In this document: positions 4-21,354 of the stretch, piece after piece
How positions within the stretch are numbered: position 1 is the first letter of the stretch
Layout: each line of letters opens with the position of its first letter
Origin: an uncultured Candidatus Rokubacteria bacterium
Lineage (GTDB): Bacteria > Methylomirabilota > Methylomirabilia > Rokubacteriales > DASRDR01
DNA length: 24,918 nt
Assembly: GCA_963805625.1 (NCBI GenBank)
Contig: CAWDVE010000002.1
Span: 1 to 24,918 of the forward strand
Direction: 5' to 3'
Notes under the pieces: generated by a model
The model's database searches: none
What the model was told of the DNA's origin: nothing
Seen by the model: only the letters and a program-made list of their open reading frames with translations
Made by a program: the position numbers and the translations under genes

Positions 4-153
4 CCTTCAACCTACTGATTAAGAGACCGATGGCGGGCGAGACCCACGCCAATCCAGTTCGACGCAGACCAAGTGTTTTCTCGGGTTTCGCCCACCCTCT
101 TCTGGGCCTGGTTGGGCAGATACGGTGCAGGTTCTCGGGCAATTCTCGGACAC
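4..153 (-). repeat. att-like site copy 1: tRNA-Lys(CTT) 3' fragment (4-25) plus ~130 bp arm shared with 9838-9986
   Basis: Reverse complement reads CTCTTAATCAGTAGGTTGAAGG (anticodon loop to T-stem). About 13 differences over 150 bp versus 9838-9986 by manual alignment. Ends in the direct repeat TTCTCGG(G/A)CA x2. Confidence 0.85.
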
Positions 154-444
154 AGGCTCAATTGCCGGTTACGAAAGCAGATCCACTTCGCGCTACCGGG
201 CATCTGTCTTACTCCTGTCTGTCCAAGTCCCGCGGTCACGGGCGGCGCGGCACGCCGTCCGCAGCTTCCTCAAACCATCCGACCTCGTGCCTTGCTTCGA
301 TCACACCTAGCATCTTGCCGCAATAGAAGCGCGCCCATCCGCTAAGAGGGCGGTGACCCGCTTGGCGCCTGTGAGGTCTTGACGATCCGTCTGAGGCGCC
401 CCTGACCGGGGCGTCCGCACTGCCCTCCGCCTGGGTCGCGATCG

Positions 445-1107
445 TCACGCGCGGCCCAGGGCGGCAAGGATCTGCTGGAGGTCTCCCTGGTTAAGGTACT
501 GGTGGAACGGATCTCGGGCGGGGTCGGACTGCCAGGCGTACTCCGCGAGCGCGGCGATCTGCTCCGCCCGCGCCCGGCCATAGAGCCGCGCGATCACTGC
601 CAGGGCCATGTCGGTGCCCGCAGAGATCCCCGACGAGGTGACGTACGGCCCGTCCTCGACCCACCGCGCCTCGGGCACCCAGCGGACCCGGTCGCTCTGC
701 ACGGTGGCGTGCTTGAATAGCTGCTTGTTCGAGGTGGCCCGGCGCCCGTCGAGCAACCCCGCCCGGGCCAGGATCGCCGATCCGGTGCACACCGACATCG
801 TGATCTCCGCCGACGGGGCCCGCGCCCGCAGGAAGTCGAGCAGAGCGCCGTTGTCGACCTGGCGCGCCGAGCCGATCCCCCCGGGGACCAGGACGAGGTC
901 TAGCGGCGGGCAACCGGCGAACCCGTGCTCGGCGAGCGTCTTGACCCCGGGCAGCGAGGCGACCGGGCCAGGCGTCTCGGCCACGGTCACGATGCGCACC
1001 TCGGGGGCCAGGAACCCGAACATCTCCAGCGGTCCGTATAGGTCCAGCAGCTCGAAGTCCTCGTACAGGACGGCTGCCAGCGTGCGCACGCGCATCGATT
1101 GGTTCAT
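445..1107 (-). CDS. DJ-1/PfpI family protein (isonitrile hydratase InhA-like)
   Basis: Motifs FELLDLYGP, LVPGG, SVCTG (catalytic Cys), TSSGISAGTD. GGAGAGG RBS before ATG at 1107. Confidence 0.9.
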   Translation of the reverse strand: MNQSMRVRTLAAVLYEDFELLDLYGPLEMFGFLAPEVRIVTVAETPGPVASLPGVKTLAEHGFAGCPPLDLVLVPGGIGSARQVDNGALLDFLRARAPSAEITMSVCTGSAILARAGLLDGRRATSNKQLFKHATVQSDRVRWVPEARWVEDGPYVTSSGISAGTDMALAVIARLYGRARAEQIAALAEYAWQSDPARDPFHQYLNQGDLQQILAALGRA

Positions 1108-3079: not shown

Positions 3080-4633
3080 CTAGTTCCGGCAGACGAGTGT
3101 GGCCCCGGCCGGGTCTGAGACCAGCGGACTTGGCGTGAGAACTCGCAGTCTCACGGATAGGCTGAGGGACCGGTCATACGACTTCTCCGGCCTGCCAATG
3201 CTCCACACATAGGGGGGCACCGACAACGTCCCCGACCCCTTGAACAAGATGATCTCCTCACGTCCGACGACGGTATCGTTTCGCTCCCACCGATAGGCCA
3301 CCGTCCCGGGCGCCGTCGCCGTGATCTCGCCCGTGAACGTGAACGCCTTGGGACAAGGACCCACGTGGGACTGGGGACTCACGCTCGCCGCAACACGGGT
3401 CACCTCGAATCGGGCGACTGTCACGGTGACCTGTCGGCTCTCCGTGCGGCCGTCCGCCCCGGTGGCGGTCAGCGTGTAGATGGTGGTCGCGCCGGGCCGG
3501 ACCTCGCGGCAGCCCTTCTCGAGGGTCCGGGGGTCCAGGTCGCCGAGATCGGGGTCGATGCGGGCGCTCCGGGCGTTCAGAACGGACCAGCACAAAGTGG
3601 GGAATCCGCTCTTGCTTCTCTTGACCTCGACGAAGTCCCGAATCTCGACGGGGGCCGTGCCAGCGGCCTGCACGGTGACCTGTCGGCTCTCCGTGCGGCC
3701 GTCCGCCCCGGTGGCGGTCAGCGTGTAGATGGTGGTCGCGCCGGGCCGGACCTCGCGACAGTCCTTCTCGAGGGTCCGGGGGTCCAGGTCGCCGAGATCG
3801 GGGTCGATGCGGGCGCTCCGGGCGTTCAGAACGGACCAGCACAAAGTGGGGCCCCCGCGCGGGACCCTCTGGGCCTCGAAGGTCCGAATCTCTACCTTCG
3901 CGCCGGGGGACGGAGCCGTGGTCGTGAGATTCACGGGATAGTTCCACTGCCGGAGCTTCTCGAGGATTCGGTCGATGCGGACGGCCTCGCCATCAGGAGG
4001 CTGGTCGCTCCGGATCACGCCCACGAGCTCCCAGCGCTCGTTGACGAGCGCCCCCCCCGAGTGACCAGGGGCGAGGAAAAGCGATTCGAACTTCAGCAGG
4101 TCCGTCGATGCCTCCGAGATAGCGTCCGGCGTGACCCTCGAGTACCAGGGTCTCCCGTTGGGGTAACCGACCGAGTAAACCGGGGCTGTTCGTTTCAGGG
4201 CAGTCGTGTCGCCGAGACGATCGAAGGGCAGTCTCGGCAGGCTGATCGCCTTGAGATTGGTCACGCTCAGGACCGCGAGGTCGAGGCCGTGATCGACGTC
4301 CGTCAACAGCCTGGCCGGCGCGGACTCACCGGGCAGCCAGCGGAACAGCACCCGCAGATCCTGGGCTTCCTCCTGCGTCCCTTGCCGGACGACGTGATTC
4401 GCGGTGACGATGTACAGGCGATCGCCTCGGACGCCCACGATGATGCCGGCACCGATAGTGTCGCTGCCGGCGAGCTTCCCCTGGATCATCACGACCAAGC
4501 TCTTGAGCCGGTCCTCAGCCTCGCCCGCGACGACCGGCTGGCCCCAACAGGCAGAGCCGAGTGCCAGCGAGAGCGTACCCGCGGTCCAGGCCACACACCG
4601 AAGGAACCGGCTACTGCTACTCGCGGGGTTCAT
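3080..4633 (-). CDS. Secreted trypsin-like (S1) serine protease with two tandem beta-rich repeats and a C-terminal Ig-like domain
   Basis: Triad motifs TANHVV, DLAVL, GHSGG. Signal-like N-terminus. ATG 4633 overlaps the upstream TGA (ATGA). Confidence 0.85.
   Translation of the reverse strand: MNPASSSSRFLRCVAWTAGTLSLALGSACWGQPVVAGEAEDRLKSLVVMIQGKLAGSDTIGAGIIVGVRGDRLYIVTANHVVRQGTQEEAQDLRVLFRWLPGESAPARLLTDVDHGLDLAVLSVTNLKAISLPRLPFDRLGDTTALKRTAPVYSVGYPNGRPWYSRVTPDAISEASTDLLKFESLFLAPGHSGGALVNERWELVGVIRSDQPPDGEAVRIDRILEKLRQWNYPVNLTTTAPSPGAKVEIRTFEAQRVPRGGPTLCWSVLNARSARIDPDLGDLDPRTLEKDCREVRPGATTIYTLTATGADGRTESRQVTVQAAGTAPVEIRDFVEVKRSKSGFPTLCWSVLNARSARIDPDLGDLDPRTLEKGCREVRPGATTIYTLTATGADGRTESRQVTVTVARFEVTRVAASVSPQSHVGPCPKAFTFTGEITATAPGTVAYRWERNDTVVGREEIILFKGSGTLSVPPYVWSIGRPEKSYDRSLSLSVRLRVLTPSPLVSDPAGATLVCRN
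3422..3851. repeat. Intragenic direct repeat, 2 x ~181 bp (3422-3602 and 3671-3851), period 249 bp
   Basis: Copies differ at only 2 positions on manual comparison. Encodes TLCWSVLNARSARIDPDLG...TYTLTATGADGRTESRQVTV-type unit twice. Confidence 0.95.
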
Positions 4634-5772
4634 GCGGCCATCCGCAGCCAGCGCAGGCCGCCGACGGCCAGCCCAAAGACATAGAGCGTCGTGCCCCAGA
4701 GCAAGGACAGGCCGTGGCGCGCTCTCAGCCACTCCAGCCAAGTGGGCATCAGGCTTCTCGGGTTGTCCTCCGAGCCGGTGCTCATCTCTCGAACCCGGCC
4801 GTGGAATCTCAAGGCAATGTGATCCTCACGCAGCCGGACGGCACGCAGCTCGCCTCGGGCCTGGCCGAACCGGATCTCCTCACCGGACCGGAGCGTACGT
4901 GCCACGCCATTGAGGGACTCGAGGTAGAGGGTACCGGAGAGAATCGTGGAGAGTCGGCGGACGAACGCGTGATCGGTGTCGCCGAACTGCTCGACCTGAA
5001 AGAGGGAGAGGGCATTGACTGACATCTGCGGCGACAGGCCGGTTCCCGAGAGGTCCCTGAACGTGAGATCCAGGTCGACCACCTCGGGGCCGAGCTCCAG
5101 AAGCACTGCCCTCGGGCTCACGAACTCGACCTGTTGGGCGGGAACCCCGGGAAGCCCGATGAGCACGGGCCCGTGCACGTCTATGTGCAGCTTCCCGTCC
5201 GGGCCCATCAAGGACAGGCGATATTGGTTGGGGGTGTCCGTGCGGCGTAGCCACACGCGCGTTTTGGAGGCGATCGTGATCGGCGCCAGACTGATCGTCC
5301 CCCGGCGGTTCCCGTGGGCGCCGACCGCCAATCGGATCGAGGCTTCCGTACCGGCTGGGGCGGCAAGTATCGTGGGATCGTGGGTTGGTGTGTCCGGAAG
5401 ACTGATCTCACGCAATCCCGAAGCGCCAAGAGCTGCCAGGGTCGCGCCCTCCATCAGCAGCTGCGGGGTGGGCAGGGAGAAGCTCACCTCGGACACCGTC
5501 GCATCCAGCGCGATCTCCGTCTCACGCACTCGAGCGAAGAACAGGACGCTGACGATCAGGAGAGTTCCGACGAGCGCGGCCGCTACCGGCCAGCGCTGAC
5601 GGGTGGGAGCCGGCTCGGCGGCACCGCAGAGTTCGACCAGGCGGGCCAGGCGCCCCAGGGCTTCGATCCGCTCGCCGGAAACCTGCCCGCCTGACCGCAC
5701 TGCCTCTTCACTGGCCGCCCTGACCTGGCGACGCAGCTCCTCTCGAAGCTGTTCTCCCGCGACTCCGCTCAT
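4630..5772 (-). CDS. Hypothetical membrane protein (TM near the N-terminus, beta-rich body, C-terminal TM)
   Basis: Long ORF with two hydrophobic segments, translationally coupled to the protease. Start inferred at MSGVAG. Confidence 0.75.
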   Translation of the reverse strand: MSGVAGEQLREELRRQVRAASEEAVRSGGQVSGERIEALGRLARLVELCGAAEPAPTRQRWPVAAALVGTLLIVSVLFFARVRETEIALDATVSEVSFSLPTPQLLMEGATLAALGASGLREISLPDTPTHDPTILAAPAGTEASIRLAVGAHGNRRGTISLAPITIASKTRVWLRRTDTPNQYRLSLMGPDGKLHIDVHGPVLIGLPGVPAQQVEFVSPRAVLLELGPEVVDLDLTFRDLSGTGLSPQMSVNALSLFQVEQFGDTDHAFVRRLSTILSGTLYLESLNGVARTLRSGEEIRFGQARGELRAVRLREDHIALRFHGRVREMSTGSEDNPRSLMPTWLEWLRARHGLSLLWGTTLYVFGLAVGGLRWLRMAA

Positions 5773-5803
5773 GCCGTATCCCGGCCACCATGCGAGGCGG
5801 GCG

Positions 5804-6658
5804 TCAGCCGCCGGGATGGTAGAAGAAGAGGCTCCTCGTTGCGGAGCCACCGCGTGTAAGGGTTGCGCCGATCTGCAGGTGATAGATGCCTGCCGTCTTG
5901 AGCTCCGGGAGGTGGACGGCGATGCCCCGCTCAGCCGGATAGTAGCCGTATCGCAGGGGCTCGTCCCGCTTGAGGAAGGCGCGCGTGCGCCCACCCGCAT
6001 CCAGGGTGGACAGGGTAATGAACACCTCGGTCAAATCCGCCCCAGGCAGGAGCATGACCACGTAGCGTCGCGACCGGGTCGCCGGGCCCGGTGTCCCGAT
6101 CCGGAGTGGAACGTACACCTCGTGCATCTTCTCGCCCACGGCGTACGGCACCCATCCGACGACACCGAGCTCCTGGCTGCGCATCTTGAGCGGGGCCAGC
6201 ACGTCGGCGGACCAGGTGTAGGTTGTGGCGCCGGGGGGACGCACCGTGTCCATCCGGTAGTAGAGCTTGCGGCGAAGCCCGAAGGCTCGAAGCCGAGTGG
6301 GGGCGTCACCGGGCGGCGGTGTCCACTCCAGGTGAAGGCTCTTGCCGGGGCCGACTTCGAACTGCTCGAACGGCTCCGTGACCGATGCGATCGAAAGCCC
6401 CCCGCTGCCCGCGACCTCCCGGATGTAGAGACCTTCGCAGCGGTCCCCGCGGAGAACGTATCCGAGCGGGTCACCCGCCGGCCTGACCAGAGTCGGGTCG
6501 CAGTGCTCCTGTGCGGCAGCGAGGGTGCCACACATGCACAGCATCAGGGACGCCGGGATGAGCCGGCGCGCTCGGCAAGCCCGGTCGCGAAGCGGCCCGG
6601 GGAAGCCTCGGCCGGACTCTCGAACGGGAAGCACCTCGGCGTCGCTTCGTTGCTCCAT
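5804..6658 (-). CDS. Hypothetical secreted protein
   Basis: Signal-like LIPASLMLCMCGTLAAAQE, then a globular region with a Cys pair (HCDP...RCEGLY). First gene of the protease operon; start uncertain. Confidence 0.7.
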   Translation of the reverse strand: MEQRSDAEVLPVRESGRGFPGPLRDRACRARRLIPASLMLCMCGTLAAAQEHCDPTLVRPAGDPLGYVLRGDRCEGLYIREVAGSGGLSIASVTEPFEQFEVGPGKSLHLEWTPPPGDAPTRLRAFGLRRKLYYRMDTVRPPGATTYTWSADVLAPLKMRSQELGVVGWVPYAVGEKMHEVYVPLRIGTPGPATRSRRYVVMLLPGADLTEVFITLSTLDAGGRTRAFLKRDEPLRYGYYPAERGIAVHLPELKTAGIYHLQIGATLTRGGSATRSLFFYHPGG

Positions 6659-7056
6659 CCGCCGGCGATACGCGCCGCCGCCTGGGACGTGACGGCTGAC
6701 AGCATCGCCAGCATAGACGAACGGCGCCGAGCCTGGCAAGAGCCGTATCGAGCGATGAAGCGGCGAGGCTCCCGGAAGGGGTAGAGCCAGGCTTCCGGCG
6801 CCGGAGCGCGTGGCGACGTGTCGAGTCGCCGGCGAGCGGCGGTGTCTCCGTCACGCATCCGCCGCGCGATGTCCCCCGGTGACGGGCTCCGCGGTCGTCG
6901 GTCCACGGCGAGCGAGCGTCCACCGCGGGAGGGAACGCCGGCCCGCGCCCACGACGGGAGCCCCCCACCTCTTTGGGTGAGGTATCGTGGCCGCGACCCG
7001 CGGGCACTCTGGATGGGTGCGACGTGCGTTTGGACCGCTTGGAGAGTGAGCTCAGT

Positions 7057-11206: not shown

Positions 11207-11545
11207 TTAGCCTCCGTGAGACGCATCATGCACGATCAGCCGCCGCCACGCGGTCAGCCCCCGATACTTGTTCGCCGGCGTCAGCGCGACGGTGAGATCA
11301 CCGAGGGCGCGAGCCTGACACGAGAGGAACCACCCGTGCGTCTTTTCTTCCTCCGGGAGAACGGCGGCCGAGCAACGGCCGTGCTCGACCTGCCCGGAGA
11401 TGAGGCGCATCTTGCAGGTGCCGCAGCCGCCCCCTCGGCAACCGAAGGCGACGCTCGCCCCCGATCTGAGGATCGCGCCCAGCACGCTCTCCCCGACGCC
11501 ACACGCGACGACATCGCCGGCCGGGTTCAGCGTGATCGTGTACAC
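11207..11545 (-). CDS. Plant-type [2Fe-2S] ferredoxin, XylT-like
   Basis: GCRGGGCGTCK...FLSCQAR motif; directly downstream of catechol 2,3-dioxygenase. Alternative GTG start at 11596. Confidence 0.88.
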   Translation of the reverse strand: MYTITLNPAGDVVACGVGESVLGAILRSGASVAFGCRGGGCGTCKMRLISGQVEHGRCSAAVLPEEEKTHGWFLSCQARALGDLTVALTPANKYRGLTAWRRLIVHDASHGG

Positions 11546-11604
11546 CCCTGCCCCCGCCAGACGGTCCTCTTCTACATCGCGGGTCAGCGATCGCACGTGA
11601 CGGC

Positions 11605-12519
11605 CTACGTGTAGACGCTCAGGAATGTCTCGTTCAATTCTTGCGAATAGTAGAAGACCGCCGGCCCGATCTCGTCCATCGTCCACTTGATCGCGCGGCA
11701 GTCTGGATCCATCTGATACGAGGTGTAGCCGCCGAACGCCTCAAGCCGGTTGCCGGACGGATCGAAGAAGTAGATCGTGGTACCCCGGGTGATGCCGTGT
11801 CGACCCGGCCCGTAGTCGATCCGGGCCTTGTGCATCGTGAGGATATCCGCGGCGCGGAACAGCGCGTCGGCGGAGTCCACGACGAAGGCGGCGTGATGAA
11901 ACCCTCCCGCCCGCCCCGGGACGATCGCAATGTCATGCGGCGCCGGCCGCTGCCAGAGCCACGCGGCGACGGGAACTCCCTCCGGGTTGACGAGCATCTC
12001 GCTGATCCGGAATTCCAAGACTTCCTGAAAGAACTGAATGGCCTTGGGCGGCTCTGGCGCCGTCACCAGCGTGTGGTCCAGTCTCGGCGGGGCGATGCCC
12101 TTCAGACCTTCCGGCCACGGGGCCGGGTTGACCGTGGGCAGGACATTCCCCGTGTAGTCCATCTCGTTGTAGAGCTCCACCGTGTGTCCGGACGGCGCGG
12201 TGAACCGGAGCGCGCGGCCTCGCCGGTAGTCCTCCGGAATCACATCGTAGGGCACGCTGAACTGTCGGAGGCGACGCTCATAGTAGTCGAGGTCTTCGGG
12301 ATCCACCGTCCGGAACGCGAGCCGAACCATGCCCGCCCGATCGGCTTCGGTCAGCGCGACGGAGTACGCGTGGCGCTCGTCCCACCCCTTGAGGTAGGCG
12401 GTCTTCCCTTCGCGGGCCGTCAACTGCAAGCCCAGGACGTTGAGGTAGTAATCGAGGTCGCGATCGAGATCGAGGCTCCGGATCTCCACGATCCCCAGCC
12501 GAGAGATTCTGTACGGCAT
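11605..12519 (-). CDS. xylE: Catechol 2,3-dioxygenase (type I extradiol dioxygenase)
   Basis: YLKGWDE, PPRLDH, FHHAAF, GPGRHGITRGTTIYFFDPSGNRLE with His/His/Glu Fe ligands. 304 aa; purine-rich RBS. Confidence 0.92.
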   Translation of the reverse strand: MPYRISRLGIVEIRSLDLDRDLDYYLNVLGLQLTAREGKTAYLKGWDERHAYSVALTEADRAGMVRLAFRTVDPEDLDYYERRLRQFSVPYDVIPEDYRRGRALRFTAPSGHTVELYNEMDYTGNVLPTVNPAPWPEGLKGIAPPRLDHTLVTAPEPPKAIQFFQEVLEFRISEMLVNPEGVPVAAWLWQRPAPHDIAIVPGRAGGFHHAAFVVDSADALFRAADILTMHKARIDYGPGRHGITRGTTIYFFDPSGNRLEAFGGYTSYQMDPDCRAIKWTMDEIGPAVFYYSQELNETFLSVYT

Positions 12520-12666
12520 CTCGTCCCCCTTCCTGCATGGCATCGCCCTGCACCGCTATTCACCCGACTCGCCGGCCAGGCGAAGAACCTCCAACCTACC
12601 ACCCGTCCGATCCGGAAAGCGTCGCCGGTCGCTACAACTTCTTCATGCCCGGCGCCTCCTTTCCGG

Positions 12667-12763
12667 AAACCTGCGCGGCCCAAAGCCAGGTTCCTGACTC
12701 CCTCCCGGCCCGGCCGTCAGCCCAGCGGGCGCAATCCCACGGTGGCCGGACTCTAGCGCGCGG
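12667..12763 (-). repeat. ~97 bp conserved non-coding element, copy 1 (candidate promoter plus structured leader)
   Basis: Aligns with 19671-19768 with one indel. TAGAGT -10-like box near its 5' end. Confidence 0.8.
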
Positions 12764-12879
12764 CTCGAGATCGGTGCTAAGACAGCTGAGGTAGGCCGCT
12801 CCGCCGTCCCGACGGAGAGCGAAGCAGGCGCCGACGCAGGGCGGCGGCAGCGACCCCACCCGCCGGCGGGCGATGCGAC

Positions 12880-13453
12880 TCACGTATTCGGCGGTCCGCT
12901 ATTGGCCCTGGGCACGGATGCCGCCCCCGCAGCAAGCGCGAGGACGTCCCGCGTTCCAACGCCGACCGTCGAGGCGACCCGACCATCGGCGCCGACAAGA
13001 ACGGCGGACGGGGTTCCGCGAGCCCCGAACGCCTTCCCCACCGCGAAGCCTTCGTCGAGTACCACGGATGACTGCAGCCCGAGCGCTCGGTTCGCCTCTC
13101 CGTTGCGCGCGAGCGTCGCCCAGCCCACTGGCGAGGAGCGGAGTTGGCCGAAACAGCCACAACTGGGACGCTGGCCCCGGGCAAGGGCCGACCCCATCGC
13201 CGTCGTGAAGGCGAGAAGGAGGCTGAAGACTCCAAGAGCTCCCCCCCAGGCCGAGGCCCGAAACAGAAGCGCGAGGGGCGACGGCTAGCTCAGCCACCGG
13301 GAGCAGCCAGCCGAGCGGCCTCGCCAGCGCCGCCGGGAGCCCGAAGTCCGTCAACGCCTGCCGTGTGCCGGCCCGGTCGAAGAGCTGGGCAACACCCGCC
13401 ACGCCGAAGACACCGGTCAGAACGAGGCGCGAGCCGAGGAGGAGCCAATCCAC
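12880..13453 (-). pseudogene. MauE/DoxX membrane domain fused to a thioredoxin-like (MauD-like) domain; frameshifted and internally deleted
   Basis: RLVLTGVFGVAGVAQLFDR, AELAVA, SCGCFG, TLARNG (MauE), then AFGARGTPSAVLVGADGRVAS (Trx C-terminal half). Extra C near 13275-13278; the CxxC half is deleted near 13098. Confidence 0.8.
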
Positions 13454-13460
13454 GACGCGC

Positions 13461-13559
13461 AGTCTACCCGAAGCCCGCGAACGGGCAAGGGCGTCCCAAA
13501 GCGGGCCCCAAGCGCTCAACCCCCGCCGTTTGACCCCGTCTGCGCGGTCGTGCTACGGT
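13461..13559. promoter_or_regulatory. Candidate back-to-back sigma70 promoters
   Basis: Plus strand: TTGACC (13530-13535), 18 bp, TGc-TACGGT (13554-13559). Minus strand: TTGCCC (13488-13483), 16 bp, TAGACT (13466-13461), 7 nt before GTG 13453 (leaderless-like). Confidence 0.5.
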
Positions 13560-13607
13560 CGCTGCCGAGTCAGACCGTCACTCCCTCCACACCGGGAGGG
13601 ATCCTTC

Positions 13608-14090
13608 ATGAGCCAGGGCCCGACGCAACCGGCGGCGCGGACGAGTGGACTGGTGGTCAAGACGGCGGGCGACGAGGTGCTCGTCTACGACCTCGAGGCG
13701 CACAAGGCCCACAGCGTGAACGGGGTGGCGGCGGCGGTGTGGCGCCGCTGCGACGGCACGCGGGACGCCGCCCGGATCGCGGCTGACCTCCGGGAGGACG
13801 GTGTCGCGCCGGTCACCGAGGAGGCTGTGCGGTACGCACTCGGGGAGTTGGGGCGGGCCCGGCTCCTGGCGGGGCCGATGGCCGGGCCCGGACTGACCCG
13901 GCGGGAGCTTGTGCGGCGGCTCGGCACGGCGGCGGCGGTGGCGTTGCCCCTCGTGACGACGATCGTCGCCCCCACGGCCGCCCAGGCGCAGTCTTGTTTG
14001 CCGCAATTAGCGCCGTGCACCCAGAACTCGCAGTGCTGTTCGGGCTGTTGCGATCAGGTTGCCTGCGGCCCCCCTTCAGACTGCGCATAA
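13608..14090 (+). CDS. PqqD/RRE domain fused to an internal twin-arginine signal and an 8-Cys knottin-like peptide
   Basis: DEVLVYD...AHSVNGVAAAVWRRCDG...IAADL (PqqD fold), LTRRELVRR plus h-region plus AQA, then core CLPQLAPCTQNSQCCSGCCDQVACGPPSDCA. GGGAGGG RBS. Confidence 0.85.
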   Translation: MSQGPTQPAARTSGLVVKTAGDEVLVYDLEAHKAHSVNGVAAAVWRRCDGTRDAARIAADLREDGVAPVTEEAVRYALGELGRARLLAGPMAGPGLTRRELVRRLGTAAAVALPLVTTIVAPTAAQAQSCLPQLAPCTQNSQCCSGCCDQVACGPPSDCA

Positions 14091-14324
14091 CCACTATTCG
14101 CGACATCCGCCTTTTCGCGCCAGACGGTGCGCAGGTGGGAAATCCTGCCCGGCCGCACCCAGCCGCGTGGAACCGTGCATCGCGTCGTCGTTGAGGCCTT
14201 GTCTTGGCGGGAGGAGATCCGCAGCGCGCGGATCGCCGTCGGCGCAGGATGACGCGGGGTCAGGCGGCTTAACGACGAGGTCGCGGCTCGCCCGCGCCCT
14301 CCGAAGCGTGCCGCCCCGGCGGCC

Positions 14325-14695
14325 CTAAGAAACTGCACCCTCGAGCAGCTCGCCGGTTTCGCGATTGACGAGAGCGAGGCCGAGATTGGCGGCGCGCTGA
14401 CGCAAACGGCGAATGACGCGCTGGCGGTGCCGGGCGTCGTACGCGGCGGCTCCCGGATCACGGTAGACCAGGCCATCCTTGAGGGTGCGGTAGACGAGGA
14501 TCGCGAGCTTGCGGGCCGTCGCGGTAATCGCTTTGGCCTTGCCCACCCGGAAGGCCAAGCGGCGATAGAAGGCGCCGAGCGCGGTCTCGGTCCGGCCGAG
14601 GCTCATGGCGGCCATGCGCAGGATCCCCGCGGCGCGGTTGGCGGAAGGCGGCGTCGCAGAGCTGAGGAGGCGGCCGCCGGTGATCTTGTTGTGGG
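14325..14695 (-). mobile_element. IS110-family transposase, 3' fragment
   Basis: NKITGGRLLSS, LGAFYRRL, KAITATARKLAILVY, C-terminal ...GAVS*. The N-terminal DEDD domain is absent. Confidence 0.88.
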
Positions 14696-17324: not shown

Positions 17325-17378
17325 GCCGGCCCGTCCCTCGAGCACGGCCGTGGTGGCGCGAAGACCACGGCGCGTGGG

Positions 17379-17490
17379 ATGCCGTTCGGCCCCTATCGCG
17401 GCCTCGAGCTCACCGAGCTGCCCGACGTCCGTGCGCTGGAGCATCTGCGCGAGCCGCCGCGCGGCGCGGTCGCGCACGAGTACGTCTCCC
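17379..17490 (+). pseudogene. Possible remnant of a small phage-type MPFGxYRG protein (DUF3820-like)
   Basis: MPFGPYRGLELTELPD...LREPPRGAVAHE resembles the family N-terminus; short and degraded. Confidence 0.35.
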
Positions 17491-17542
17491 CGCTTCGGAT
17501 ACGTCTCGGCCGTGCTCGTCCCGCTCACGCCCGATGTGCTAG

Positions 17543-17912
17543 CGCTCCGCGACGTGACCGGAAACTGGACCGGCATCGACGCGCGGCCGGTGGCGGTGAA
17601 GAACTTCCTCGCCTACACCCTGCGACGCCTCGGCACCGACTACGTGGACGTCTACCGTCCGGGCCGGCTGGATCCCGCCGTGCCGATCGAGGAAACGGTC
17701 GGGGCGATCGCAGGGCTGGTGAAGTCCGGCCTCGTCCGCCACGTCGGGCTCTCGGAGGTCGGTTCGGCCACCATCCGGCGCGCGCACGCGGTGCACCCAA
17801 TCGCGGATCTCCAGATCGAGTACTCGCTGATCTCGCGCGGCATCGAGTCCGACATCCTTCCCACGTGCCGCGAACTCGGGATCGGCGTGACGGCCTACGG
17901 GGTGCTTTCGCG
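17543..17912 (+). pseudogene. Aldo/keto reductase internal fragment
   Basis: LRRLGTDYVDVY, PIEETVGAI, VGLSE, LQIEYSL, GIGVTAYGVLSR. Both ends are missing. Confidence 0.88.
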
Positions 17913-19633
17913 CAGGCTCATGACGAGGCAGGGCATGGCGCGCAGCTCGACCTCGAAGCGCTCCCAGTAGGCCTTCTCGAAGGCGGCCGAGAGCTCCTCT
18001 CGCTTGAAGTCGGTGCGGGCGATGGGCACGGTGAGCACGTGGGTCTGCCCGGCGAACTGCATGTCGGCCTCGTGCCGGACGGTGACCGTCTCGATCTCGA
18101 CGCCCTCGGCCGCGAGCAGGGTCCGGCCGCGCTCGATCTGGTCGGCGAAGACCGTGCGGGCGGCGCCGACGTCCATGCGCAGGAGGTCCTGGTTGATCGT
18201 CTTCACGAAGTCGGGGCGCACATCGGCCACCAGACACCCCAGGGCCGAGGTGATCCCGGGACGCGTCGGCACCAGCACCCTGGGGATGGCCAGTTCGCGG
18301 GCCAGGGCGGCGGCGTGCAGCGGGCCGGCGCCGCCGAACGCGAACAGGACGAAATCGCGCGGGTCGTACCCGCGCTGCAGCGACACCAGGCGGATGGCGC
18401 CGGCCATCTTGTCATTGGCCACGCGCACGATGGCGGCGGCGACCTCCTCGGGACCCAGGCCGAGATGGGCGCCGATCTTCTTGTCGAGGCGGTCGCGCAC
18501 CGCGGCGAGCTGCGCGGCGCCCTCGACGCCGAGGAGTCCGGCGGGGTTGAGCCGCCCGAGGAGCAGGTTGGCGTCGGTGGTCGTCGGCTCCTCGCCGCCC
18601 CGCCCGTAGCAGATCGGCCCGGGCTCGGCCCCCGCGCTCTGCGGTCCGACCTGGAGGATGCCGGCCGAGCTCACGCGGGCGATCGAGCCGCCCCCGGCGC
18701 CGATCGTGTGGATGTCGATCATCGGCACGCGGACCGGCAGGCCGTAGCCCATCTCCTTGTCGGCGCTGATGGTGGGACGACCGTCGCGGATGACCCCCAC
18801 GTCGAAGCTGGTGCCGCCCATGTCACAGCTGATGACGTCGCGGTATCCCGCCGCCGCGGCGGTGTAAGCGGCGGCCTTCACCCCGGCCGCCGGCCCGGAC
18901 ATGAGCGTGTTGACGGCATGGCGCGCCGCCACCTCGACCGACATGGTGCCACCGTTGCCTTGCATCACCAGGAGCTCGCGCCGGTAACCCTGTCGCGCCA
19001 GCTCGCCGGCAAGGCGCCGGAGATAGCGATCGATGATCGGCTGCACGAAGCCGTTGAGCCCACCGTCACGTACGGGTTCGGCCACGACGTGGCCACCAGA
19101 TCGCGGACCCGACGCTCGTGACCGTCGTTGAGATAGGCGTGGATGAAGTGGATGACGAGGGTCTCGACGCCCTGCGCGCGGAGCGACTCGGCGGCGCGGC
19201 GCACCTCGCCCTCGTCGAGCGCGATGACCACCTGGCCCTCGGCGTCGACCCGCTCGGTCACCTCCAGGCGCAGCTCGCGCGGGATGAGGGGCTCGAACGT
19301 GCCCTTGAGGCCGTACGGCGTGGGTCGCGTGCGCCGGCCAAGCTCGAGTACGTCGCGGAAGCCGCGCGTGGTGATGAGGCCCGTGCGGGCGCCCTTGCGC
19401 TCGAGCAGCGCGTTGGTGGCCGTCGTGGTGCCGTGCACGATCACCCGGAGTTGGCTTGGCGCGACCGAGGCCTCGCGGAGCGCGGCGAGGACGCCGCCGG
19501 CCTGGTTCCGGGCGGTGGTGGGCACCTTGGCGACGCGGACGTCGCCGCCGGCCTCGTCGACGAGCACGAGATCGGTGAACGTCCCGCCCACGTCGCCGCC
19601 GACGAGCGTGGTCTCGCCCGGCTGTCGACTCAC
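17910..19633 (-). pseudogene. Hydantoinase A / 5-oxoprolinase family; internal frameshifting deletion and 3' truncation
   Basis: DVGGTFTD, HGTTTATNALLERKG, SGPAAG, DMGGTSFD, GAGGGSIA. YVTVGS is joined out of frame to LNGFVQP near 19057; the gene runs into the AKR fragment. Confidence 0.9.
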
Positions 19634-19670
19634 AACAGCATCTCGATGGCGGACGAGACCAGAAGGAACT

Positions 19671-19768
19671 GAAGCTGGGCGGTCCAAAGTCAGTTTCCTG
19701 CCTCCCTCGCCGGCCCCGCCGTCAGCCCAGTGGGCGCATTCCCAGGGTGCCGGGACTCTAGCGCGCGG
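19671..19768 (-). repeat. ~97 bp conserved non-coding element, copy 2
   Basis: Homologous to 12667-12763; ends ~38 bp before the hydantoinase GTG. Confidence 0.8.
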
Positions 19769-20005
19769 CAGGCCGGACCGAACCTCGCCTGGGGGGGAGT
19801 TCTCCGTGTGGCACCGGGGGCACTGCCTGCCAGGCCCTCCAGTGCGCCAAAGGCTAGTCCGGTGGAGAGGGGGCGTCAAGCATGGAAGCCGCCGGAACAG
19901 CCTGGGCGCTGATTCCGAGCCATTGACACCATCCTGCATCCGATGTGACACTCAACCACCAACCGCTCCCCGAGCGCTCGAGTGCCGAGGCTGCAGGACA
20001 CCGCC

Positions 20006-21354
20006 ATGCGCGTCCAGTTCTGGGGCACCCGCGGCTCCCTGGCGAAGCCGGGCCCGACCACGCTGCAATACGGCGGCAACACCGCGTGCGTGGAGGTGCG
20101 CACGGCCAACGGGACACTCATCGTTCTGGACTGTGGGACCGGCGCGCATGGCCTGGGGCTCGCGCTCGCGGCGGCGGCCGAGCAGCCTGTGCGCGGTCAC
20201 CTCCTGATCACGCACACGCACTGGGACCACATCCAGGGTTTCCCGTTCTTTGCGCCCCTCTTCGTCCGCGGCAACGAGTGGGACATCTACGCGCCCGGCG
20301 GGCTCGGTCAGCAGCTCGAGGTGACACTGGCGGGGCAGATGGAGTACACGTACTTCCCGATCACCCTCTCGCAATGTGGCGCGGCGATCCGATTCCATGA
20401 TCTGGGCGAGGGCAGCTTCGAGATCGGGGCGCTGCGGGTCACCCCACGGTACCTGAATCATCCGGCGCTCGCCCTCGGCTACCGGCTCGACGTGGACGGC
20501 GCCGTCGTCGTGTACGCCGTGGATCACGAGCCTCACACGCGCGACCCTGCTGGCCCCGCCCCCGGCGCCCGAGGTCGGTCACCCACGCATCGGGAGGATC
20601 AGCGGCATGTGGACTGGCTTGCCGGGCGGACCTGGTCATCCACGACGCGCAGTACACGGTGGAGGAGTATTCCCGACGGATGAACTGGGGCCACACCCCC
20701 GCCGAGTGGGCGGTGGACTACGCCGTGGCCGCGGGCGCCAAACGCCTGGCCCTCTTTCATCACGACCCACAGCGCGATGACGCGGCGCTCGATCGGCTCC
20801 TGGAGGTGTGCCGCCAGCGCGCGGCCGACAGCAGCCTGGACGTCCTGGCGGCGGCCGAGGGGCAGGTCGTGGAGCTGGCGAGGAGAGGGATCGACGCCGT
20901 CCGTCCCGAGGGGCCGGCCGCCTCCGTCGTCCCGGCGGGAATCTCGCCCGCAGGGGCCGCCACCATCCTGATCGCCGACGACGATCCCACGATCGTCCGG
21001 CTCCTGACCCTCACCCTCGCGCCGCAGGGCTTCCGGCTGCTGACGGCCAGCGACGGGGAGACGGCGCTTCGCATGGCCCGCGCGGAGAGACCTGCACTCG
21101 TCCTCCTCGACTGGCAGATGCCCGGCGCCGACGGCATCGCGGTCACGCGTGCGCTGCGCGCCGACACCGACGCCGACCTGCGCGACGTGCCCGTCGTACT
21201 CATCACGGGCTTGGCGGGCGGCGAGAATGCCGCGATGGGCTTCGAGGCGGGGGTGACGGACTACCTCACCAAGCCGTTCCAGCCGTCGCACGTGCGGACG
21301 CGCGTGCGGACCTGGCTGCTGCGACGCGGCACGGGCCCCCGTGGCGGGAGGTGA
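20006..21354 (+). pseudogene. MBL-fold metallo-hydrolase fused to a C-terminal receiver domain; single -1 frameshift near 20625
   Basis: FWGTRGS, YGGNTAC, THTHWDH, DHE, then in another frame DLVIHDAQY, WGH, FHHDP and REC motifs IADDD, LLDWQMP, YLTKPF. One missing G in GCCGGGCGGAC restores the frame; this could be a sequencing error. Confidence 0.85.

Follow-up and report, generated by a model that had tools for sequence, protein, structure and literature searches.

The ORF at positions 13608..14090 of the forward strand of the 24,918-nt stretch analysed here (the window) encodes a 160-aa protein, P0001, which joins an RRE/PqqD-type domain, a twin-arginine (RR) leader and a short Cys-rich core. 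The layout is not due to chance; it belongs to a very large bacterial family, in which this architecture is conserved and the core is hypervariable. The reading we favour, with a probability of about one half, is that P0001 is a one-piece precursor, where the RRE would bind its own leader, a kinase would phosphorylate Ser129, and a predicted cystine-knot peptide would be exported by Tat and set free by signal peptidase I. A broader proposal, put forward tentatively, is that the family forms an undescribed RiPP class of thousands of clusters, in which the RRE would keep the Tat signal of the same chain covered until a kinase has phosphorylated the Ser at the beginning of the core, after which a phospho- (possibly phosphoglyco-) cystine-knot peptide would be released. 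A literature search, the coverage of which lay mostly outside subscription journals, found no description of an RRE-RR-Cys precursor family; the data sets of PMC12710340 may list members unlabelled.

The gene and its nearest surroundings comprise the following features:

12880..13453, minus strand: divergent broken MauE-thioredoxin gene (Pfam MauE in two frames; tblastn with a 518-aa paralog)
13594..13600, plus strand: Shine-Dalgarno-like GGGAGGG, 7 nt 5' of the precursor ATG
13608..14090, plus strand: precursor ORF P0001, ATG start, 160 aa; RRE, linker, RR leader/signal and Cys core
13623..13877, plus strand: RRE/PqqD domain, residues ~6-90, three strands and three helices (Pfam PF05402, AlphaFold2 model, fold matches)
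13896..13919, plus strand: twin-arginine motif TRRELVRR, T97-R104 (RR conservation)
13920..13973, plus strand: hydrophobic region L105-P122, with V111-x-x-P114-x-V116 (candidate RRE recognition motif) and a predicted strand at 116-119
13980..13988, plus strand: A125-Q126-A127, predicted signal peptidase I site (conservation of A125 and A127; putative cleavage)
13989..14087, plus strand: 33-aa core Q128-A160, 8 Cys, net charge -2 (predicted knottin-like fold)
13992..13994, plus strand: Ser129, i.e., P114+15, candidate phosphorylation site (S/T conservation in the family)
14325..14615, minus strand: IS110-family transposase fragment, context only (NF033542, E 1.9e-7, far below the cut-off)

Layout, conservation and variability of the precursor family

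The ORF is laid out exactly as the sequence-only reading had described it, with TRRELVRR at residues 97-104, the hydrophobic stretch at 105-121, AQA at 125-127 and a 33-aa core with eight Cys spaced C-x6-C-x5-CC-x2-CC-x4-C-x5-C, for which a monoisotopic mass of 3308.19 Da was computed with four disulfides. Short-read contigs from two runs cover most of the gene (X1, 13532-13866 and 13919-14469; X3, 13489-13947 and 13951-14089) with zero letter differences.

One search returned 384 relatives, the layout being seen among the 120 best listed, and clustering at 50% identity yielded 5,726 related clusters at E≤1e-3 and 3,360 at E≤1e-10, where the best 150 were listed and the full layout was inspected among the listed matches. 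Conservation was assessed in a pooled set of 354 sequences picked by likeness to P0001 (261 proteins and 93 locus ORFs, near-duplicates included). R98 and R99 are each present in 99% of these sequences, P114 in 98%, P122 in 99%, A125 in 79% and A127 in 88%, and position 129 is Ser in 75% and Thr in 20%. When the two prolines served as an alignment-free anchor, 333 of the 354 sequences were retained and 21 dropped; 323 have RR upstream, and in 94% of the latter the RR is preceded by S/T. Homologues share a conserved RRE and RR region and differ in a hypervariable Cys core, as the sequence-only reading had expected: the identity to P0001 among 276 relatives is 49% for the RRE, 64% for the leader and 20% for the non-Cys core positions and, among the 67 closest, 66%, 79% and 18%, respectively.

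The cores have a median length of 40 residues. The number of Cys is even in 301 of 306 cores, six being the commonest count (149/306), and His makes up only 38 of 12,170 core residues; because of the even Cys numbers and the near absence of His, disulfides rather than bound metal are likely, and the metal-binding alternative named in the sequence-only reading is disfavoured. The eight-Cys pattern did not prove to be a family trait, since the exact P0001 spacing occurs in five proteins among 323 rows; its first part, C-x6-C-x5-CC, is found in 141 of 323 relatives of this selection-biased set.

The DNA similarity between P0001 and three same-genus relatives (72-81%) ends at 13993-13996, i.e., at the first core codons, which points to the core as a variable module and is better evidence for it than the codons. 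AT-richer core codons had been taken as a hint in the same direction, and they are real in the P0001 gene (synonymous GC3 of 21/32 in the core vs 116/125 before it, Fisher p=2e-4), the core GC3 being lower than that of the rest in 59 of 88 family genes; however, the hint is weak because the 3' ends of adjoining kinase genes show the same drop (32/47, p=1e-4; nucleotidyltransferases 28/46, p=0.23). Codon bias as a sign of a foreign core was rejected as non-specific.

Named loci, 78 in number and drawn from the best 80 of 181 matches, belong to Acidobacteriota, Methylomirabilota/Rokubacteria, Gemmatimonadota, Chloroflexota, Armatimonadota and others, with Methylomirabilota as the top named match and no Bacillota among the 78. 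A search of the ESM Atlas returned only clusters labelled 'hypothetical' or 'PqqD family', Acidobacteriota being the commonest source. Several loci hold two to four tandem precursors with different cores, e.g., three in L056 and four in L058. In these arrays (L056:5995-7756 and L058:1836-7311), the Longimicrobiales cores are strongly basic, with many Lys, Arg and Asn, and the P0001 core is acidic. A word-based search, weak for a variable core, revealed no candidate for stand-alone leader-core proteins of 30-87 aa. Five matches are longer forms, two of which resemble frameshift read-throughs into the nucleotidyltransferase gene.

The cargo behind the AxA motif varies and includes Peptidase_S74 tails and a 500-aa extension (L016). 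P0041, P0047, P0072, P0078 and P0264 carry a Peptidase_S74 domain, an intramolecular chaperone, behind the Cys core. P0265 combines the family's RRE and RR leader with a single Cys and then a domain that, by eye, looks Hint/intein-like and ends in V-S-H-V-K; a Pfam search revealed no match at E≤0.001.

Predicted structures of the RRE domain and the cysteine core

RREs have been described as separate proteins or enzyme fusions. Residues 23-86 of P0001 match the Pfam family PqqD (PF05402) with 32.9 bits against a cut-off of 23.4, and no NCBIfam model attains its cut-off on P0001. An AlphaFold2 model obtained from a 68-row alignment (pLDDT 86.9) contains the RRE elements in their order, and the closest folds are the B1 proteins of lasso peptide systems (6jx3_B, Z-score 9.1, rmsd 2.8, 83 residues aligned), including TbiB1 (Z-score 8.4-9.2; 5v1v_A, Z-score 9.2, rmsd 2.7, 86 aligned). 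A Foldseek search with the whole model found nothing at E≤0.001, the top match being again TbiB1 (2e-3). The identity of the N-terminal part proposed from the sequence was borne out by the Pfam score and by the superposition on solved RREs, and the model indicates an RRE fold for this domain.

The model can also be aligned, up to residue 123, with the last part of the NisB chain in 4wd9 (range 135..1020; Z-score 6.8, rmsd 3.7, 96 aligned), an entry whose title names the NisA leader; the residues near 1020 would correspond to this leader. The single-chain model places a strand at 116-119. Modelling of a complex of the RRE (1-92) and the leader (94-131) scored 0.03 in both runs, which speaks neither for nor against binding.

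Residues 127-160 of the model superpose on inhibitor cystine knot (ICK) peptides with Z-scores of 2.7-3.7 (4aoq_E, Z-score 3.7, rmsd 2.3, 32 aligned; 2m36, Z-score 3.6, rmsd 1.8, 32 aligned). These Z-scores are low, and AlphaFold2 may have been led by the Cys spacing; the core folded alone without an alignment gave an unreliable model (pLDDT 63.5). The likeness to conotoxins and knottins claimed in the sequence-only reading thus fits in Cys spacing and predicted fold but falls short of demonstrated homology: the Pfam conotoxin family (PF02950) scores 15.5 bits on the core against a cut-off of 25.1, and none of the tests made here marks the core as a conotoxin homologue. The core shares the C-x6-C-x5-CC start with ICKs such as SOTI-III, Aps III, maurocalcin and O-superfamily conotoxins, and a superposition over 28-34 residues; unlike them, it is bacterial and acidic, lies below the Pfam cut-off and has no common non-Cys motif that could be seen. 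By spacing and model, then, the core can be called knottin-like. Bacterial knottin sequences are already present in the KNOTTIN database, without solved structures as of 2017, according to the available text of PMC5753296.

Predicted export signal, putative phosphorylation register and proposed pathway

TatFind-like rules, coded anew and applied irrespective of sequence position, were passed by 301 of the 323 anchored sequences. An uncharged run of 13 or more residues is present in 321 of 323; in P0001 the hydrophobic run comprises ~17 residues with a central Pro, and the stretch 105-121 has a mean Kyte-Doolittle value of 1.96. The Phe of the Tat consensus SRRxFLK is found in only 2% of the sequences (L 36, V 30, M 17 and A 10%), and Leu in its place also occurs in Tat-like signals of the own genome, which has one tatC. 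Used by themselves, profile positions 92-130 pick up periplasmic binding proteins through their N-terminal RR signals, both among relatives and in the own genome; a Pfam scan covered three of the six such loci. Judging from these motifs, Tat export of the P0001 tail is likely.

The RR pair of P0001 lies at residues 98-99, not in the N-terminal position of class I Tat signals, and a Met is present within 12 residues upstream of RR in only 77 of 323 sequences, on which account a conserved internal start before RR was rejected. The remark of the sequence-only reading that Tat signals are normally N-terminal needs a supplement: in FecR, Tat reads RR at R79-R80 behind a cytoplasmic domain, according to the available parts of bioRxiv 10.1101/2025.01.06.631622 and PMC13673990. 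Given this precedent, the new part is the predicted cleavage of an internal signal rather than its position. The September 2026 review (PMC13673990, in its available text) distinguishes five classes of Tat substrates, none with an internal cleaved signal, and defines class V signals as non-cleaved. As in FecR and class V, the RR of P0001 is internal and comes after a folded N-terminal domain of 80-95 residues on the cytoplasmic side; unlike in them, AxA is kept in the P0001 family, suggesting cleavage, and the predicted exported part is a tiny variable peptide.

The neighbourhood was surveyed in 80 best-match loci. Of these, 78 are the loci named above (best 80 of 181 confirmed matches, one pattern), one holds a paralog on own-genome contig C21 and one is a 12.5-kb part of the window; many are related, and many are truncated by contig ends. 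An HprK-related kinase is encoded in 47/80 best-match loci and an NTP_transf_5 nucleotidyltransferase in 51/80, both in 39/80 and either in 59/80, in the usual order kinase, precursor, nucleotidyltransferase. Other neighbours are C25/PorU-like proteins (28/80), GT4 (15/80), Wzz (9/80), MauE-Trx (4/80) and an Asn-synthase-like gene (3/80 best-match loci). The kinase and the nucleotidyltransferase, together with a Pro-to-Ser register, were missed in the sequence-only reading, the picture of which is incomplete in this respect.

In this register, S/T stands at P114+15 in 311 of 332 anchored sequences and at +12, +13, +14 and +16 in only 6-30; P114+2 is V/I in 99%, and P114+4 is S/T in 323 of 333. 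In a control of 23 Tat-like signals of the own genome (picked by pattern, with crude site picks), S/T occurs at +2 after the cleavage site in 3/23 and Pro at -14 in 0/23. P0001 has Thr at P114+4, where LppA has Ser, and has Val at +2 and A-Q-S at +13 to +15, as does LppA of the LPP system, in which, according to the available text of PMC13381572, LppK phosphorylates the core Ser3 and LppN is without detectable effect, and the RRE LppB binds the YxxP-x-V motif of LppA and the following residues as a strand. In the LppA sequence given in the available part of that paper's supplement, the phosphorylated Ser is 15 residues past the motif Pro. In the structural model, the P0001 strand 116-119 falls where LppA pairs with LppB. 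The position of the LPP Tyr is occupied in the family by V 51, A 22, I 15 and L 11%, with no Tyr or Trp, and YxxP to LxxP substitutions are tolerated, according to the available text of PMC12710340. BsfK modifies Ser3 or Thr3 with the aid of an RRE (PMC10368454, available part), and 44 of 50 neighbouring kinases keep the BsfK catalytic-motif spacing, with DE for DD in 42. The kinase, the nucleotidyltransferase and the LPP-like register would give the RRE a definite task.

Other observations temper this assignment. S/T at +15 is not enriched beside the kinase (37/47 with vs 33/37 without), and one section of the conserved motif, S-I-V-x-P-x-A-A-x-A-Q, is shared with the signal of an ordinary periplasmic protein from the lineage, so that it may reflect a signal style and not kinase recognition. 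Among 41 related genomes, six carry the precursor (E<1e-20); a full-length close kinase (E<1e-30) is present in four of these six and in none of the other 35, with a partial match in G011. With these queries, G008 (92% complete) has two precursors and no close kinase or nucleotidyltransferase, and G007 (71%, also a carrier) has no close kinase.

In the pathway that we propose, the RRE would probably bind V111-x-x-P114-x-V116 and residues 115-120 as an added strand, like LppB and LppA, and would thereby bury part of the Tat hydrophobic region, holding back export. An HprK-related kinase such as that of contig C21 would then phosphorylate S129, a step with a somewhat better than even chance for the family and an even one for the orphan P0001, and the NTP_transf_5 enzyme may add a sugar or nucleotide to the phosphate. 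TatBC would, quite probably, engage the internal RR while the RRE remains cytoplasmic, on the pattern of FecR. Signal peptidase I is expected, with fair confidence, to cut after A127, in which case a dedicated peptidase or ABC exporter is not needed. Four disulfides would form outside the cytoplasm, in some lineages aided by the MauE-thioredoxin protein. The candidate recognition strand is itself part of the hydrophobic region, so that binding by the RRE should compete with engagement by Tat, and modification would come first and export second; Tat proofreading chaperones impose a comparable ordering of steps. The most likely function is that of a cell-envelope or matrix-associated effector or signal, given that the loci are surrounded by polysaccharide genes and by genes for large secreted proteins of C25/PorU-like type. 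These C25/PorU-like neighbours (L009, L012, L015, L019, L029, L031 and others) have 1,100-1,900 aa and bear a Peptidase_C25/PorU-like domain at the C-terminus; they are mostly from Acidobacteriota and sometimes occur without a kinase or nucleotidyltransferase, and a second processing or anchoring step is possible for them.

Genomic context, known systems and rival readings

Pfam scans of 25 of the 121 ORFs of the window and tblastn searches of the genome revealed no modifying enzyme near the precursor gene in the window. The three closest same-genus copies (L105-L107) are orphans too within the stretches examined. The own genome has a paralog on contig C21 (44% identity over 121 residues), which is followed by an intact MauE-Trx-Trx gene, the full-length HprK-related kinase gene (C21:337745-338554) and a convergent NTP_transf_5 gene. 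This module (G000:C21:336574-341194; L001:5575-10195), the precursor of which has 12 Cys and a Pro/Gly tail, is complete and is a better test object than the orphan P0001. The MauE-thioredoxin gene lies beside both own-genome precursor copies; the copy in the window has a frameshift near 13275 and, compared with the intact C21 paralog, an in-frame loss of ~330 codons at 13098-13102. One short-read contig (X1, 12953-13526) runs across both breaks with no gap, which makes a long-read error an unlikely cause; that run may be the source sample. As an obligatory part of the system, MauE-thioredoxin was rejected (4/80 best-match loci). Five further PqqD domains are encoded on own-genome contigs C12, C13, C16, C17 and C24, several adjoining NTP_transf_5 or distant kinase genes, which suggests several RRE-kinase systems in one host.

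Among known systems, the LPP system of Bacillota (LppA/K/B/S/D/N) is similar to the P0001 family, as far as the available text of PMC13381572 shows, in the combination of an RRE, an HprK-like kinase and an NTP transferase near polysaccharide loci, in a conserved leader with a variable core and signal-peptidase-type processing, and, for LppA, in Pro-x-Val, the Ser 15 residues past Pro and the A-Q-S ending. The LPP RRE is discrete, whereas that of P0001 is fused to the precursor; the LPP leader carries YxxP, and the P0001 family has V/A/I/L-x-x-P, a leader with RR and a hydrophobic region, and a Cys-rich core. An SpI-like peptidase or MsbA-like exporter was found in 0/80 best-match loci by motif patterns (many loci being cut by contig ends), the same ABC ATPase and S26 patterns finding 99 and 2 in the own genome, and the kinase and nucleotidyltransferase are absent from the window, though they stand beside the C21 paralog. 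P0001 was rejected as an LPP member on account of the fused RRE and the lack of the YxxP motif and, in the loci surveyed, of an SpI peptidase and ABC pump; the words 'Tat' and 'twin-arginine' are absent from the main text of PMC13381572. By analogy, P0001 may nevertheless work like LPP with the chaperone and the export signal built in.

Phosphorylated lasso peptides, i.e., Bsf (Ser3; PMC10368454) and paeninodin and pseudomycoidin (PMC8498205), share with the family, in the available parts of these papers, the B1-type RRE fold, an HprK-like peptide kinase of equal motif spacing and an NTP_transf_5 partner. Unlike these systems, the P0001 core is constrained by cysteines, and no B2 peptidase or lasso cyclase is present among the recurring annotated neighbours (representatives of part of the clusters were scanned); a lasso peptide system was rejected because the B2 peptidase and macrolactam cyclase are lacking there. 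HPr-rel-A (TIGR04352 kinase, TIGR04353 PqqD chaperone) and the SynChlorMet cassette likewise place a PqqD-family domain beside an HprK-related kinase, but the HPr-rel-A models describe stand-alone chaperones, and membership was rejected (18.3 vs a cut-off of 35 and 51-62 vs 200). MauE and MauD have a role in disulfide handling. In the maturation of the methylamine dehydrogenase small subunit by MauE/MauD, as at the P0001 loci, MauE and thioredoxin-like domains stand beside a Cys-rich protein with an RR signal; unlike in that system, the P0001 loci have a fused MauE-Trx-Trx, in 4/80 best-match loci and broken in the window, and no methylamine dehydrogenase genes were seen at the loci.

Several points count against the favoured reading, namely, the 2% of consensus Phe, a signal starting at residue 97, the window without a kinase or nucleotidyltransferase gene, and the adjoining redox partner being a pseudogene. 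An alternative that we regard as rather unlikely is an export cassette with an unphosphorylated P0001 core, where the RRE would be a mere built-in signal chaperone or relic and the kinase and nucleotidyltransferase would serve the paralog or envelope substrates. It accommodates the orphan state of P0001 and of its close same-genus relatives, the G008 precursors without a close kinase (with this query), the lack of linkage of S/T at +15 to an adjacent kinase and the varied cargo behind the same signal, and is at odds with the retention of S/T at P+15 while the flanking core drifts to ~20% identity, with a Pro-Ser spacing equal to that of LppA Ser3 and with the full-length kinase beside the own-genome paralog. 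There is a slim chance that P0001 is an uncleaved class V Tat membrane protein with the RRE in the cytoplasm, one membrane helix and, in the periplasm, a cystine-knot tip for sensing or binding, where the RRE would recruit the kinase or bind another peptide in trans; the AxA motif, conserved along with a Pro that precedes its last Ala by five residues, the short hydrophobic run with its central Pro and the tandem copies with different cores, which resemble a precursor library, speak against it, whereas its topology is that of FecR and the mean hydrophobicity (KD ~1.9) would suit it.

A cytoplasmic RiPP-like or metal-binding protein, in which RR is a recognition motif of the kinase or a peptidase and the Cys are metal-bound or modified inside the cell, is very improbable. 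RRE leaders are normally not export signals, and the non-canonical and internal Tat motif agrees with such a protein; the even Cys numbers and scarce His, the match of the leader segment to real N-terminal Tat-type signals, the MauE-thioredoxin linkage (4/80 best-match loci, including both own-genome copies) and the absence of a Cys-modifying enzyme among the recurring annotated neighbours disagree with it. Whatever the family does, the P0001 copy might also be a decaying remnant of a duplicated module that has lost its expression, which we consider improbable: the ORF is intact with every family motif present, P0002, 90% identical, keeps all eight Cys, and same-genus relatives keep intact orphan copies, against which stand the broken MauE-thioredoxin gene on one side, the IS110 fragment on the other and the promoter and terminator consensus, not found near the gene and not expected in shuffled sequence either. 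Of the outcomes that the sequence-only reading had named as speaking against it, i.e., an N-terminus without an RRE fold, unconserved RR and AxA motifs or a metal-binding cytoplasmic Cys tail, none was encountered among those examinable here.

The one-piece precursor reading specifies a single predicted site (S129), a single enzyme and a single mass, and is thus testable in E. coli. It would also extend the kinase and nucleotidyltransferase chemistry of LPP to abundant uncultured soil phyla. The broader proposal of a RiPP class, if true, would add a sixth class of Tat substrates, with signals that are internal and cleaved, and would reveal knottin-like effectors as a library that bacteria make naturally. 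According to a 2025 census, 21% of the PF05402 proteins exceed the length of a single RRE without having another Pfam domain, and they are treated as unexplored enzymes in the available text of PMC12710340; the present family suggests that many of them may be substrates.

Elsewhere in the window, a repeat of ~75 bp at 12691-12780 and 19695-19769 also occurs on at least five other contigs, is abundant in other runs, and may be an intergenic repeat or a small element. At 3080-6739 (minus strand), three ORFs point the same way; one encodes a trypsin-like peptidase that contains a tandem repeat, and the other two have no Pfam match. An ordinary pair of genes, for a catechol 2,3-dioxygenase-like protein and then a 2Fe-2S ferredoxin, lies at 11207-12543 (minus strand). 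At 17350-20683, genes for an aldo-keto reductase, hydantoinase A (two overlapping frames) and a metallo-beta-lactamase-fold protein look truncated or frameshifted, and gene remnants or assembly indels seem to be frequent on this contig.
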